From an uncultured Alphaproteobacteria bacterium (GTDB taxonomy: Bacteria > Pseudomonadota > Alphaproteobacteria > RF32 > CAG-239): 64,000 bases of DNA. This document shows, piece after piece, positions 49,282 to 53,626 of this stretch (position 1 is its first letter; every line of letters begins with the position of its first letter). The notes under the pieces were generated by a model, which made no database searches, was not told the DNA's origin, and saw only the letters and a list, made by a program, of their open reading frames with translations. The stretch lies in contig CALXVV010000040.1 of assembly GCA_944392205.1 (NCBI GenBank), positions 32,971 to 96,970 of the forward strand, written 5' to 3'. A program made the position numbers and the translations under genes.

Positions 49282-49308
49282 TCAGTCATTGACTGGTAAA
49301 TCTCAAAC

Positions 49309-49342
49309 AAAAGGGGGCTGTTTCATAGCTCCCTTTTGTTTT
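49309..49342. terminator. Terminator hairpin after dnaK (also faces the 130-aa gene)
   Basis: aaaagggggct-gtttcat-agctccctttt followed by gtttt. Confidence 0.6.
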
Positions 49343-49353
49343 GCCTGGTGGCA

Positions 49354-49746
49354 TTAAAATAATGCGGCTTTTATCTCCTCCATGTCGAGAGGTTGTGCAA
49401 GCCCCATCATTTGATCGTGGCGCTTTGGGCCTTCCCAAACCCACAGATTTCTTTTTGCTTCAACATAGAGGTACTCTGTTGGGTAGGCTCGGCCTCCGAG
49501 AGCTTCTGCAAGCTTTTTGGCATGCTCCTCGCTGCCTACAAAGTAGGAAATATCCATATCCATCTGCTCGTAGTCAAGACCTATCTTCTTTGAATTGTGG
49601 TAGACCTGAGAGCGCAGAACACAAGCTCCGCCGTTATAAACAAAAAATATCGATCCGATATTTTCAACTTTGCAACTTCCGGGATTTCCCTGTTCAATAC
49701 CTTTTTTAATCTGGCTCAAAAGCTCTTGCTTCTTTTTTAAATCCAT
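49354..49746 (-). CDS. 130-aa orphan protein
   Basis: Clean ORF with balanced composition; no family recognised. Confidence 0.45.
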   Translation of the reverse strand: MDLKKKQELLSQIKKGIEQGNPGSCKVENIGSIFFVYNGGACVLRSQVYHNSKKIGLDYEQMDMDISYFVGSEEHAKKLAEALGGRAYPTEYLYVEAKRNLWVWEGPKRHDQMMGLAQPLDMEEIKAALF

Positions 49747-49826
49747 AATCTTTAATTTTAGAGGTTTATAATAATATTTTTCAATATGTTAAGTCTCTAT
49801 CATACTTTTATGAATTCATCAAGGGC

Positions 49827-49871: not shown

Positions 49872-52800
49872 TTATTTACTGTTACCTCTAAAGATCCTAT
49901 TAAAAAATCCAGGCTTTTTTGCTTTTGTTGTTTGCTCGGAAGTTTTTTCTGTTTTGCTTGCAGAGCTTTCTTTTTCTGCAGAAGTTTCTGTTGAGCCTTT
50001 TTCTTGTTTGTTGATTACGTGTTTTCCATCAACTCTCTCAACTTCCTGCTCTTTTTTAGCCTTACCATTGCTGCCCATAATCGGATTTAGAATCATCTTT
50101 TTAGCAGCGCCTTTCCATCTGTCAAACATGACTGTAAATGGTATAAAGTTGTGCTGCTCTACTTGCGTATACTGGTCAATTCTTTCATAATGGGCTTGCT
50201 CCGGAATAACAGTGACCTGTTTGGGAGAATCAAAGTTCGCGTAGGTCGTGTAAACTTTTCCCGGTTCTGCATGTCTGTACTCCCCGTTGGCATCTTTGAC
50301 GGCATTGGGGCCAAGATGATGATCTGTTTGGACATTTGCGTTATCTACATGCCCAACTTCTCCGGTGGCGCTGACACAGTTGTCTAACAAAGCTATCGTC
50401 TTCATTACTTCAGGAGTTAACTTATCAACTTGTATGTTGCCATTTGCATCTGTAATTCCGGCAACAGCTGCAACTGCTTCTTGCGGAATTCCGTTTGTTG
50501 TACACCATTCACCGCCCATGGAGTGATGTTGTCCTCCTGCTCTGATATCATCGCCATCTTGGACATGGAGCATATTGCTGTCTAAATCAGCGTTAACCAT
50601 TTGTGCTCCGCAATGGCCGGCCACTAGCAAAGCTCTATATGGGTCAACGGCCTGATCCGGGTGCTCGGCGTTCCAAGCATTTATTGTGTCTTTGATAGCG
50701 GAAATATTATTATCTAACAAATCAGGATCATCTCTGGTCCATCCTTCAAGGGTTTTTTGCGCATATTCAACAGCACCCTCTTTATAGCTTACTTGGTAGC
50801 TTTCTTCTTGATCTATTACCTTAAAACCATTCGGGTCTTCAGCTGAGGTTTCGACCCTGACTCGACCGTCTGCCGCTAAATTTTCAGCACTCTCATGTTG
50901 TAAACTTGCGCCTTCCTCTGCTGATAAGCTATCTTTTATAACTCCTGCTTCATTTAGCTGTTCTGCTGTCATTTGAGAGCAATCTTTCAAATTGTCAGCC
51001 TGCACCGGCTCGGTTGTATAGCTTGAATCTGATGCATCATACTCATCAGCGTGCGGCGTTCTGGTGCTGTGCTCTCCCCAGCGATCTGTTTCCGTTGCCG
51101 TATGGGATGACAGTAAATTTAATCCTCCTGCCAGAGCCATGCCGCTTGCAACCGCTGTTGCCGTAGACAGGGATGCTCCGCTGAATGCTTTCAAAAATGC
51201 TTCTTTTTTAGTGCTACCATTTTTTCTCTCGGTTTTATAATTTCTGAAAACAGATATTGAGAAGCCCGCAGCAATGGTTCCGTAGCGGACGGCTTTTTCT
51301 GCCCCCCATTCACCAACTTTTCCGGCCAAGGCTATTGAAGCGGTGGTTACGGTGGCCATTAAAATTTCGGGAGCATGCTCCTTGGCAAATCTACCAAACG
51401 TTTTCAGACCGCTTTCTTCTTTCGGTGCCTGAGAACGCATTTCCATAAACGACTTTCTTAATCTCCAAAATGACTGGGTCGCATAAACTCCCGCATATAG
51501 CGACGAGCCCATTCCCGGAACCCCGGCGGCCAGCGATACCGTATTACAACCAAACCTCATTGCTTGGTTAAAACCTTGGTGAGCCATGTTTCCGGCACAC
51601 ATCTTTAAAAATGTCCGTGGAACCGTGTAGTATTTTCCAAAACGAGCTATGCAGGTCTTATCAACCTTGGCAATCGGGCCATATATTTTGCTTAAAACTT
51701 TGGCTCCGCGATTGTTTAGACGACCGGCCAAACGATTTAAATAGCTAACGTGGTTATTGACAACTGCCGCTTGAAATGCTGCCAAACCTTTTTTGCTGAT
51801 TGGTGTTTTATAGCTTGCTTTCTCTGCTGCATTTAGTCTTTCTTTATCGGTTGCCTTATCCGGCAGATTAGCTTGAGCATTGGTGGCAACTAACAAGTCA
51901 GCATGCGTTTTTAAGGTCTTTGATAATTCTTGTCTTATGGCCTCTTCAATATTGGCATCTTTTTGTTTAAAGGTGGCAACGGCGACATTCCTGGCAGCTT
52001 CGAGTTTAACGGTTTCTATGAACAGTTCTTTGTCTTTTGCTGCGTCTGGTTCCTCAAAAGTGAGCGCATTTAAGTCTTTTGCATATTCACCCAGCCACTC
52101 GTTGGCCTGTTTAGAATCTTGCAAATTTATTTTTTTAACTTGCTGCCAAATGTTATCAAAGCTTTCTTCCAAAGCTTTTTCGTCTTCGGGGGAAACTTGA
52201 TCAAGGTTGTTTACCTTATCATATTCCTTAATCTTGTCATTGAGGCTTTGACGAACATTTTCTATCATTTCACGCAATTCAGGTGAAAGCTCTCTCTGGC
52301 TCAAATAATTCAGCATTTCCTGGGCGCCATCATAAACATCGCTGATATTGCTTACATCAACAATGATATTGCCTTGCGCATACCCCCTTACTTTATTCAG
52401 CATTGTTTCAAGCAGAATCTTTTGGTAGTCTCTCAAGGCTGTTTTGGCTTCGTTGCTTTCCTTATCTTCTTTTGGTTCCAACACTTGCAGAGATATATCT
52501 GTATCTTGCGCCATAATTGTTAACTGGTGCGGAGGTAGGATTTCTGCCAGCATATGAGCATCTTGGAGGAGAAGCCCGTTGAACTTTGCGGTTTGAACAG
52601 GTGATAAATTCTCTTTTAGCTCTTTTAGCGTTACTTCCTTTTGCTCTGCTGACATTTCCGCAAAATCTTGCGGAAATTGTTCATCCAAAACTCTTTTGAG
52701 GGCACTAATTTCAAGTCCTTCTTCAATCTTAAGAGAATCCGACATTACATCCAAGAAAATTGGCAACTGTCCGTTGCTCTTTGCGCCATCCAATATTTGC

Positions 52801-53432
52801 TTCCATTCATCAGAAGTATAGCCCTGCAGCACTTCTTCTTTGAGAGGTTCTGGCTCAGGAGTGGGTTTTGGTTCTGGTTCAGGAGTTGGTTCTGGTTCTG
52901 GTTCAGGAGTTGGTTCTGGTTCAGGAGTGGGTTCTGGCTGCACCACAACTCTATCCTGAAGTCTCTTACCTTCTTCGCCCTTAAAACGTTTCCTGAAATC
53001 CTCCGTAGTTACATAAAGTTCATTACCATAATATTGTTCTTCTTGGTGCTGATTCTTTAGGCGCGCTTCTATCTCTTTATTGATTCTTTCTTTTTGTTCT
53101 TCAGAAATAGTGGCAAAATATTTATCTTTTCTTTCCAAAAACTCCTTAATGGCTTGCTCTTTTTCTTTGGGTGATGAGGTCCATTCATCTTTTGTTACGA
53201 GCTCATTAAAGGCCTCCAATATCGTTTCATCGTTCTCTTGAGGCAAATTTTGAGATTGTTTTTGAGCTTCAAACTCCTCTCGAAGCTCTTTTTTGTGGGC
53301 CAAAATGTATCTTTCCAATGCCTGCATCTCACTTATTTCTTGCCCAAAGTCATCTCGGTACTTATTGCCCGGATTTTCATAGCGCAGTCTTCTTTTTATC
53401 TCTTCTAATTCCTCATTGGTGAAGTCAGCCAT
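49872..53432 (-). CDS. 1186-aa orphan protein: coiled-coil N-region, PEPT repeats, Gly/Ala/Ser-rich hydrophobic block, Cys/His-rich C-domain, Lys-rich tail
   Basis: aggaga before the ATG at 53432 (MADFTNEE...). Hydrophobic segments VSLAAGVPGMGSSLYAGVYA, ILMATVTTASIALAG, GTIAAGFSISVF, LSTATAVASGMALAGGLNLL. No known catalytic family recognised. Confidence 0.6.
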   Translation of the reverse strand: MADFTNEELEEIKRRLRYENPGNKYRDDFGQEISEMQALERYILAHKKELREEFEAQKQSQNLPQENDETILEAFNELVTKDEWTSSPKEKEQAIKEFLERKDKYFATISEEQKERINKEIEARLKNQHQEEQYYGNELYVTTEDFRKRFKGEEGKRLQDRVVVQPEPTPEPEPTPEPEPEPTPEPEPKPTPEPEPLKEEVLQGYTSDEWKQILDGAKSNGQLPIFLDVMSDSLKIEEGLEISALKRVLDEQFPQDFAEMSAEQKEVTLKELKENLSPVQTAKFNGLLLQDAHMLAEILPPHQLTIMAQDTDISLQVLEPKEDKESNEAKTALRDYQKILLETMLNKVRGYAQGNIIVDVSNISDVYDGAQEMLNYLSQRELSPELREMIENVRQSLNDKIKEYDKVNNLDQVSPEDEKALEESFDNIWQQVKKINLQDSKQANEWLGEYAKDLNALTFEEPDAAKDKELFIETVKLEAARNVAVATFKQKDANIEEAIRQELSKTLKTHADLLVATNAQANLPDKATDKERLNAAEKASYKTPISKKGLAAFQAAVVNNHVSYLNRLAGRLNNRGAKVLSKIYGPIAKVDKTCIARFGKYYTVPRTFLKMCAGNMAHQGFNQAMRFGCNTVSLAAGVPGMGSSLYAGVYATQSFWRLRKSFMEMRSQAPKEESGLKTFGRFAKEHAPEILMATVTTASIALAGKVGEWGAEKAVRYGTIAAGFSISVFRNYKTERKNGSTKKEAFLKAFSGASLSTATAVASGMALAGGLNLLSSHTATETDRWGEHSTRTPHADEYDASDSSYTTEPVQADNLKDCSQMTAEQLNEAGVIKDSLSAEEGASLQHESAENLAADGRVRVETSAEDPNGFKVIDQEESYQVSYKEGAVEYAQKTLEGWTRDDPDLLDNNISAIKDTINAWNAEHPDQAVDPYRALLVAGHCGAQMVNADLDSNMLHVQDGDDIRAGGQHHSMGGEWCTTNGIPQEAVAAVAGITDANGNIQVDKLTPEVMKTIALLDNCVSATGEVGHVDNANVQTDHHLGPNAVKDANGEYRHAEPGKVYTTYANFDSPKQVTVIPEQAHYERIDQYTQVEQHNFIPFTVMFDRWKGAAKKMILNPIMGSNGKAKKEQEVERVDGKHVINKQEKGSTETSAEKESSASKTEKTSEQTTKAKKPGFFNRIFRGNSK
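52847..52938. repeat. Imperfect tandem 6/12/18-nt repeats encoding (PEPEPT)n within the giant gene
   Basis: ggttctggttcaggagt(t/g)gg units read directly; translated as QPEPTPEPEPTPEPEPEPTPEPEPKPTPEPEP. Confidence 0.8.
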
Positions 53433-53563
53433 TGGTTTTCTCCTAAAATTCCTCAAATTTATTTGAGCTTACAGCAACTTGATTAATTTTATGCTAACAT
53501 ATTTGGACAAATTCTGCAATACTTTTGTCGATTTTTTATGCTTTTATTTTTTTCATATAATTA

Positions 53564-53592
53564 CTTGCTTTTTCGTCTGAAAAAACCTAAAT
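53564..53592 (+). promoter_or_regulatory. Candidate RpoH-type promoter of dnaJ
   Basis: CTTG-18 nt-CCTAAAT; same spacing as the dnaK promoter candidate; about 35 nt upstream of the dnaJ ATG. Confidence 0.4.
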
Positions 53593-53626
53593 ACAAATCA
53601 ACAATGAAATATTGAAGTGACTGAAA

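Follow-up and report, generated by a model that had tools for sequence, protein, structure and literature searches.

The dnaK-dnaJ interval

In a metagenome-assembled genome (MAG; 1.38 Mb, 43% GC) of an uncultured alphaproteobacterium of the RF32 lineage (CAG-239) the genes of the chaperones DnaK and DnaJ are held apart by 4345 bp of DNA which carries two genes on the opposite strand. The region is part of a 64,000-nucleotide stretch of contig CALXVV010000040.1, here called the window. In the following this genome is denoted G000 and its contig C40; the intervening minus-strand genes, which encode 1186 and 130 amino acids, are called BIG and ORF130, and G024 is the sister genome. The dnaK-dnaJ operon is canonical in E. 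coli and in most Alphaproteobacteria. An earlier note on this DNA had placed the end of dnaK at 49281 and the start of dnaJ at 53627; open reading frame (ORF) calls and Pfam agree with both. The two minus-strand ORFs which it had noticed between the pair, each with a predicted promoter and terminator of its own, were found as described (Table 1).

The BIG frame is open from 49872 to 53456. An ATG at 53432 behind an AGGAGA ribosome-binding site is its likely start, which results in the 1186-residue product. The hairpin reported behind dnaK is real. Its 17-bp stem at 49305-49341 has a free energy (dG) of -26.4 kcal/mol on the plus strand (z -5.5) and of -21.9 on the minus strand (z -4.9), and no shuffled sequence folded as well. 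Because hairpins follow dnaK as well as BIG and a promoter motif precedes ORF130, the region is predicted to comprise four separate transcription units. ORF calls and neighbour maps disclosed no integrase or transposase ORF within the interval and no phage genes close by.

Table 1. Genes and predicted signals in and around the dnaK-dnaJ interval (window positions).
Feature	Position	Strand	Remarks
sigma-32 (RpoH)-like dnaK promoter, CTTGCA-N16-CCTATAT	47278..47306	+	motif in 21/22 genus genomes
dnaK (Hsp70), 642 aa	47353..49281	+	Pfam HSP70, E 8.7e-280; genus identity 91-98%
bidirectional intrinsic terminator, tail-to-tail for dnaK (+) and ORF130 (-)	49305..49341	both	17-bp stem
ORF130, 130-aa orphan alpha/beta protein, independent accessory gene	49354..49746	-
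sigma-70-like ORF130 promoter, TTGAAA-18-TAAAAT	49755..49784	-	10/12 consensus match only
intrinsic terminator of BIG	49828..49865	-	14-bp stem then U8; dG -24.0, z -4.0
BIG, 1186-aa orphan protein	49872..53432	-
in-frame tandem repeats (periods 6, 18, 24) for PEPTPE linker of BIG	52846..52937	-	Tandem Repeats Finder, period 24 x 3.2 copies, 94% matches
inferred BIG promoter over degenerate genus-wide palindrome	53491..53531	-	read from sequence
sigma-32-like dnaJ promoter, CTTG-N18-CCTAAAT	53564..53592	+	motif in 22/25 congeners
dnaJ (Hsp40), 381 aa	53627..54772	+	Pfam DnaJ, DnaJ_CXXCXGXG, DnaJ_C; genus identity 68-95%

The split operon in the genus and in outgroups

Here we mapped the genes in the dnaK and dnaJ neighbourhoods of 24 congeners. 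Outside the genus, dnaK and dnaJ are adjacent on one strand and 37-172 bp apart in all 15 genomes that have both genes (15 other genera). The adjacent arrangement is ancestral; the split is derived and not class-wide. Within the genus most species have dnaK and dnaJ separated by 3.4-11 kb or located in different parts of the chromosome. A large ORF of 1055-1865 aa stands head-to-head with dnaJ in G003, G004, G005, G008, G009, G010, G011, G012, G014, G015, G016, G017, G019, G023, where it is cut off by the contig end, and G024. In G008, G012, G014 and G016 this gene is at dnaJ while dnaK is elsewhere. G001, G007 and G020 have a BIG-like gene about 3 kb from dnaJ. A plain spacer of 138-188 bp is present in G002, G006, G018 and G021, and G013 and G022 are without BIG near dnaJ.

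All the large dnaJ-adjacent proteins are homologous. A profile search detected one BIG copy per genome, each time at the dnaJ locus, and failed to detect BIG anywhere in G002, G006, G013, G018, G021 and G022 or in 16 other genera. Thus, 6 of 23 scored species are without BIG, and because it is found nowhere in these six genomes the gene was probably lost there, not moved.

Other cargo is also seen in the slot: G009 has six additional genes between dnaK and BIG (L023:4551-11047), and in G022 dnaK is inverted relative to dnaJ with four unrelated genes between them (L022:4001-7337). In G010 a GC-rich block of about 450 nt separates the sigma-32-like promoter of dnaJ from the dnaJ start codon (L020:8535-9142). 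It holds three inverted repeats of the GTCATCCTCG...CGAGGATC type and looks like a miniature inverted-repeat transposable element or a repetitive extragenic palindromic element. On a metagenome contig whose spacer has ORF130 only, dnaJ is directly followed by genes for a phage-type integrase and a DUF6387 protein and by a primase-like gene (L048:2021-4052), which suggests an integrative element at the tRNA gene behind dnaJ. Finally, a second J-protein gene, which is CbpA-like and located at 42668-43618 of the window, lies about 4 kb ahead of dnaK, and a DUF1349 gene comes after it. As a synteny block these genes move along with dnaK or dnaJ in several congeners, among them G004, G008, G017 and G018.

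Predicted separate heat-shock units

As in the canonical operon the same two genes are present in the same order, on the same strand and with heat-shock-type promoter motifs. Unlike in the canonical operon, dnaJ does not immediately follow dnaK in the window, as it does in the outgroups; in the genus, dnaK ends at a strong terminator and a separate sigma-32-like promoter precedes dnaJ, with an insert or with none. The dnaK motif is located 65-78 nt upstream of the gene in 21 of the 22 genus genomes examined, the dnaJ motif 60-77 nt upstream in 22 of 25, including the empty-spacer species G002, G006 and G018; G021, also with an empty spacer, has a variant. The dnaK motif resembles the rhizobial RpoH consensus, cTTGaa-N16-CgATaT (PMC4167512). 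An empty spacer is made up of the strong dnaK terminator and, behind it, the sigma-32-like dnaJ promoter.

The earlier note had argued that dnaJ, cut off from dnaK by the insert, would need a dedicated promoter. A candidate is present at 53564-53592; however, promoter and terminator also exist in congeners with an empty spacer. Therefore, the insert did not create the need for it. The prediction for the whole genus, with the slot filled or empty, is that dnaK and dnaJ form separate heat-shock (sigma-32) units, and the strong dnaK terminator together with the dnaJ motif argues against a joint dnaK-dnaJ transcript. With two such separate units, gain, loss and replacement of genes in the slot should be tolerated without harm to chaperone expression.

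A probable old slot and its history

A tree of DnaK plus DnaJ and an independent RpoB tree agree, and every deep clade has BIG. The species without BIG are scattered beside sisters that carry it (G002 beside G003, with RpoB branches of about 0.003; G018 beside G004; G013 beside G016; also G022), and only G006 and G021 form a BIG-less pair. On the RpoB tree, no fewer than five changes are required to account for the presence and absence of BIG. Given that the outgroups have no BIG either, the economical interpretation is a single gain, at the base of the genus or earlier, and then five or more losses. In the sister pair G002 (empty) and G003 (BIG), the sequences are homologous up to the dnaK stop codon and again from 95 nt upstream of the dnaJ start. 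No target-site duplication, mobility gene, integrase, transposase or tRNA was found at these borders.

The foreign composition that the earlier note had proposed to look for was not encountered: GC content, codon usage and tetranucleotides of the interval are all native. GC is 0.429 for BIG (z -0.35) and 0.441 for ORF130 (z -0.03) at a mean of 0.442 for the genes of the genome; the codon-usage log-likelihood has a z of +0.19 for BIG and of -0.46 for ORF130; and the tetranucleotide distance of the interval ranks at the 61st percentile among random windows of 4.3 kb. Compared with G024, the synonymous divergence (dS) is 0.32-0.51 in BIG and 0.36-0.76 in the flanks. The ratio of nonsynonymous to synonymous divergence (dN/dS) is 0.115 and 0.064 in two BIG segments, 0.086 in ORF130 and 0.03 in dnaK and dnaJ. 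BIG and ORF130 are real genes under purifying selection, which were vertically inherited in the recent past.

These data bear on the reading of the earlier note, i.e. a recent horizontal insertion of foreign effector genes, a genomic islet, into the dnaK-dnaJ operon of this lineage. It would be in line with the intact, adjacent outgroup pair, the patchy occurrence within the genus including four species with an empty spacer, the orphan nature of both genes and the young appearance of the ORF130 part, which is restricted to one subclade. It is contradicted by the identical place and orientation of BIG in all deep clades, by native composition and a dS equal to that of the flanks, by borders devoid of mobility genes, duplications or tRNA, and by a promoter palindrome that is common to all BIG alleles. 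For BIG this explanation is largely refuted and we rate it as highly improbable. What persists of the claim is a derived, lineage-specific orphan insert in a pair that was ancestrally adjacent; a recent horizontal landing does not. Of the features of a recent genomic island, neither an odd composition nor mobility genes, repeats or a tRNA site nor a presence limited to a few close strains was found, and at this site only ORF130 is limited to a small subclade.

The interval is probably an old, genus-specific accessory-gene slot and not a fresh insertion. In the ancestor of the genus or earlier, BIG would have become fixed behind the dnaK terminator and ahead of the heat-shock promoter of dnaJ, and it would be transcribed divergently from dnaJ, from its own promoter over a conserved palindromic, operator-like site. 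It stayed beside dnaJ even where dnaK moved away. In the species in which it is absent it would have been deleted cleanly, at least five times, back to a short spacer of 140-190 bp. Judged by its distribution, ORF130, an unrelated accessory gene, may have arrived in the slot at a later time and in a single small subclade.

BIG exists in divergent allele types

A BLAST grouping of the BIG proteins resulted in four types. Type A is carried by G000, G024, G019 and G010, type B by G003, G004 and G008, type C by G005, G009, G011, G012, G015 and G017, and type D by G001, G007, G014, G020, G023 and G041; the BIG of G016 is an outlier. The old lineage-wide arrangement that the earlier note had named as evidence against its own reading was largely observed for BIG; however, conservation is far from ordinary at 25-51% identity, or 25-58% between the members as grouped above, compared with 91-98% for DnaK.

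The types do not follow the species. The closest relatives of G000 and G024 (G009, G011, G005 and G014) carry types C and D, and the BIG nearest to the G000 and G024 alleles is that of the distant species G019. In an approximately unbiased (AU) test the species clade was rejected on the BIG tree (delta lnL 773, p 1.9e-40), and allele type needs 7 changes on the RpoB tree vs a minimum of 3. A recent transfer of the cassette via its flanks was considered and dismissed: sliding identity along dnaK and dnaJ gave no excess similarity between G000 and G019. Therefore, the cause of the incongruence is old. It would be either an exchange of alleles between species long ago or the sorting of ancient paralogs.

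A conserved palindrome at the inferred BIG promoter

The putative BIG promoter consists, on the minus strand, of a -35 element TTGCAG (53519-53514), a 17-nt spacer with one half-site of a palindrome and an extended -10 element TGTTAGCAT (53499-53491). The degenerate palindrome of G000, TGGACAAA-N12-TTTGTCGA, is at 53504-53531. A palindrome TTGACAAAA-N~11-TTTTGTCAA is present upstream of BIG in all four allele types despite the diverged coding sequences. In our reading of the sequences, the -35 element (TTGCnn) is at the palindrome centre, a half-site lies in the 17-nt spacer and the extended -10 element (TGnTAnnnT) follows. This would be the layout of a repressor-controlled promoter with the palindrome as a putative operator.

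A scan of G000 which allowed two mismatches gave 151 hits vs 69-102 expected. It was uninformative because the site of G000 is itself degenerate, and an exact-pattern scan across the genus was used in its place. In 31 genomes the pattern TTGACA-N12-15-TTTGTCAA had 29 strand hits, while the reversed control had 6. A BIG promoter was the site of 20 of these 29 hits, one of them belonging to a newly found type-D gene in G041. Second copies of the palindrome were seen away from dnaK and dnaJ in G003 (L088:5086-5114), G002 (L090:4961-4989) and G012 (L089:5002-5028). In G002 and G003 the copy is between an RNase H gene and an orphan of 93-94 aa, in G012 it precedes a YkuD-like gene of 157 aa. The genes at these second sites may be further members of the same regulon; among them no candidate for the regulator was found.

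Features of the BIG protein

The BIG protein starts with a variable acidic N-terminal helical module (residues 1-160) and a PEPT-rich linker (165-200). A conserved helical domain (205-590) is followed by four moderately hydrophobic Gly/Ala-rich helices (about 608-774), an acidic disordered linker, a conserved His/Asp-rich C-terminal domain (880-1125) and a cationic disordered tail. All BIG types have in common the acidic N-terminus, the swappable N-terminal module and the conserved His/Asp/Glu-rich C-terminal domain. A proline-rich linker derived from tandem repeats is often present, and in the alignment the length of the PEPTPE linker varies among homologs. Two to five Gly/Ala-rich helices occur per type, with Kyte-Doolittle means of 1.0-1.8. 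BIG is devoid of a signal peptide. In 16 of 16 BIGs the final 40 residues have a net charge of +1 to +7, on average +5.1, compared with -11 to -88 for the whole proteins. The peptide MA(D)FT.EEL.EI(K/R).S.EF recurs at the N-terminus of types A, C and D (53360-53432 of the window, minus strand) while the rest of the module differs; it may be a recognition motif.

An exhaustive profile search yielded 129 clusters of the BIG family at 50% identity, which are of similar size and share the central and C-terminal modules. One homolog profile run was swamped by PEPT words and added two proteins. Two remote family members that were looked up are not beside dnaJ, and a search of genome contigs for a related locus with the interval returned the sister MAG only. 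In Pfam, NCBIfam, PADLOC and PHROGs, the only hits for BIG, four sub-segments, six remote relatives and six other allele types were to proline-rich low-complexity sequence and to one J domain; likewise, BIG and 12 relatives had no Pfam match past low complexity and that J domain. Sequence searches of the PDB, with the single sequence and with a profile, returned nothing meaningful. The J domain is N-terminal in the BIG of G015 (L015:4379-8062, minus strand; residues 24-85 with an HPD motif; Pfam DnaJ E 2.7e-22) and is 58% identical to the CbpA-like J-protein and 48% identical to DnaJ. G015 is the only one of about 150 family members with such a domain; the BIG of the window has none.

ORF130 is independent of BIG

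The two orphan genes do not form a unit. Seven ORF130 homologs align with 81% mean column identity. The gene was found in 19 of 56 genus genomes at various loci, including those of G006 and G021, which are without BIG. It shares the dnaK-dnaJ slot with BIG in G000 and G024 and occupies it alone in four other MAG contigs (L046-L049). A strong terminator separates it from BIG. ORF130 had no match in Pfam, NCBIfam, PADLOC, PHROG or PDB, and its AlphaFold2 (AF2) model (pLDDT 70) had no Foldseek match at E <= 0.001 in PDB or BFVD. ORF130 is an independent accessory gene in a permissive slot, not a partner of BIG. A role as immunity protein or chaperone of BIG was ruled out by a distribution that is uncoupled from BIG.

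Type IV secretion in the genus

VirB4 of the type IV secretion system (T4SS) gave a single match in each of 31 of 31 genus genomes. In G000 the T4SS cluster is just upstream of the window (C40:12300-31600; L083) with a VirB4 of 809 aa and two VirB8 paralogs; VirB4 is on the same contig as BIG at a distance of about 55 kb. The VirD4 coupling protein (755 aa; T4SS-DNA_transf, E 5.6e-56) is encoded among orphan genes on contig C2. The gene content of the system recalls the rvh system of the Rickettsiales. Large orphan ORFs of 1721, 1315, 536, 481 and 396 aa are part of the cluster. BIG was examined as a possible relative of these and no relation was found. A literature search for type IV secretion in RF32 Alphaproteobacteria retrieved no paper.

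For type IVA systems, cationic C-terminal signals of substrates and the direct secretion of transmembrane effectors of moderate hydrophobicity have been reported (PMC12981334). Features expected of such a substrate are present here: the genome has a T4SS with VirD4, and BIG has a disordered cationic C-terminus, the latter being an in-silico correlate only. A BID or XVIPCD domain or homology to a known effector was not found. Our best functional guess, which we hold tentatively and with somewhat less than even confidence, is that BIG is a transmembrane effector delivered by the T4SS. BIG would be a substrate of the core VirB/VirD4-type system of the genus and would be exported via its cationic C-terminal tail. 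Moderately hydrophobic helical hairpins would put it into a putative target membrane, and the swappable N-terminal module may serve as the functional head.

Several points weigh against this proposal and against the locus history. The T4SS exists in 31 of 31 genomes and BIG is missing from about a quarter of them; clearly, the system has other work and could serve conjugation or DNA uptake. The tight linkage to dnaJ for as long as the genus exists is unusual for an effector and, together with the J-domain fusion in G015, could mean a cell-resident, Hsp70-linked role. Neither a BID or XVIPCD secretion signal nor a known effector domain is recognised in BIG. Its AF2 model is poor (mean pLDDT 52), with confidence only for the all-helical part 240-590 and a small domain at 880-1020 and with a pLDDT below 50 in the tail, and there was no Foldseek match at E <= 0.001 in PDB or BFVD. 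The charge of the last 40 residues is above the genome mean of +0.5 (Mann-Whitney p 6e-8), but in a test that treats related proteins as independent. The strict dnaJ promoter motif was unmatched in the two outgroup spacers examined (2/2), and the locus history is a parsimony reconstruction from 25-31 genomes out of at least 71.

Alternative functions of BIG

The main rival to secretion is that BIG stays in the cell as a dispensable membrane protein and cooperates with DnaK and DnaJ, e.g. as a membrane-anchored Hsp70 adaptor or client scaffold. Such a role would explain why BIG never leaves dnaJ. The head-to-head linkage has outlasted the rearrangements which took dnaK away, the G015 allele has a genuine J domain with the HPD motif, and the mid-protein hydrophobic helices and the purifying selection would also be expected. 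However, the J domain is limited to about one in 150 family members, remote members are not beside dnaJ, and for a chaperone partner the extreme divergence, the incongruent types and the repeated full loss would be odd. Further, the helices are weakly hydrophobic for stable insertion into the inner membrane, and the BIG promoter is sigma-70-like with a putative operator, not sigma-32-like. We consider this role rather unlikely. A contact-dependent antibacterial toxin, delivered by the T4SS like the X-Tfe effectors of Xanthomonas or by another route and with ORF130 as its immunity protein, would suit bacteria of a gut community, and it would account for a variable N-terminal module on a conserved body, for a T4SS with VirD4 in the genome and for the position of ORF130 directly downstream of BIG in G000. 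Yet BIG is the only gene between dnaK and dnaJ in G003, G004, G005, G011, G015, G017 and G019, and the absence of an immunity-like gene beside BIG in most species speaks against a toxin. ORF130 itself is absent from the type-A carrier G010 and represented in G019 by only a partial match of 84 residues on another contig, it occurs without BIG in L046-L049, G006 and G021, and where both are neighbours the strong terminator splits them. Pfam, NCBIfam, PADLOC and PHROGs did not disclose a known toxin, trafficking or XVIPCD domain in BIG, nor was there a PADLOC match. This makes a toxin very unlikely.

BIG might also be a relic, i.e. a tape-measure-like structural gene of a phage or gene-transfer agent that was stranded in the spacer. 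It is long and mostly helical with Gly-rich hydrophobic segments, and the top viral fold hits included tape-measure proteins, none of them significant. All of these hits had E > 0.008 and TM-scores of at most 0.1, and the sole PHROG match below E 0.001 (phrog_21473, residues 164-215) is the proline-rich linker. There are no phage genes near, and position and single copy number are stable across the genus. This origin is hardly credible.

A further proposition concerns the spacer itself. The dnaK-dnaJ spacer would be a dedicated expression site for a hitherto unknown family of hypervariable secreted membrane proteins. Allele classes that predate the species would be kept by balancing or frequency-dependent selection, BIG would be coupled to the flanking Hsp70 and a dimeric regulator on TTGACAAAA-N11-TTTTGTCAA would switch it on. 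Taken as a whole this is unlikely. Possible forms of an Hsp70 coupling are that DnaK and DnaJ keep BIG export-competent or that delivered BIG recruits the Hsp70 of the target cell; if real, such a coupling would explain both the unbroken dnaJ linkage and the J-domain fusion in G015.

Comparison with known systems

Like the type IVA transmembrane-domain effectors (TMEs) of Rickettsia, Bartonella and Brucella (PMC12981334), BIG has no Sec signal peptide, moderately hydrophobic helices and a cationic disordered tail, it is lineage-specific and fast-evolving, and core VirB4, VirB8 and VirD4 are present in the genome. However, BIG is unrelated in sequence or fold to described effectors and has no BID-type domain. 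It is far larger than the typical TME with two segments, has at least four hydrophobic helices and occupies a fixed housekeeping slot, not an effector island.

Variable loci between housekeeping anchors are exemplified by the pneumococcal capsule locus between dexB and aliA and by the O-antigen clusters between galF and gnd. The BIG locus is similar: the address is fixed by conserved genes, deep alleles are at odds with the species tree and null alleles exist. It differs in that the cargo is a single orphan gene and in that a chaperone operon, split in two, supplies the anchors; no sign of a recent exchange through the BIG flanks was detected. J-domain effectors that hijack host Hsp70 are exemplified by the type III effector HopI1 of Pseudomonas syringae. 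Like HopI1, the G015 allele of BIG, itself a large variable protein, carries a J domain, here with the HPD motif. In G015 the domain is N-terminal and confined to one of about 150 family members, the sequences are unrelated, and secretion of BIG is a prediction only.

Significance

Uncultured gut Alphaproteobacteria with genomes of 1.4 Mb are common in animal gut metagenomes. To our knowledge their interactions with hosts or neighbours have not been described. For annotation the lesson is that the split dnaK-dnaJ pair is here ancestral to the genus and should not be taken as evidence of recent horizontal transfer: a conserved chaperone operon has probably turned into a tolerant accessory slot, in which each half has a predicted heat-shock promoter of its own. 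With BIG, the locus provides a hypervariable orphan that occurs genus-wide as a single copy and shows the formal hallmarks of a type IV-secreted membrane effector. It also yields evidence that every species of the genus has a core T4SS which is inherited vertically. The conserved putative operator is a handle for finding the regulator. If it is true that BIG is secreted, it would constitute a new effector family and could mark diversity at the strain level. Should BIG be an Hsp70-linked membrane protein instead, it would be a new kind of DnaK partner.

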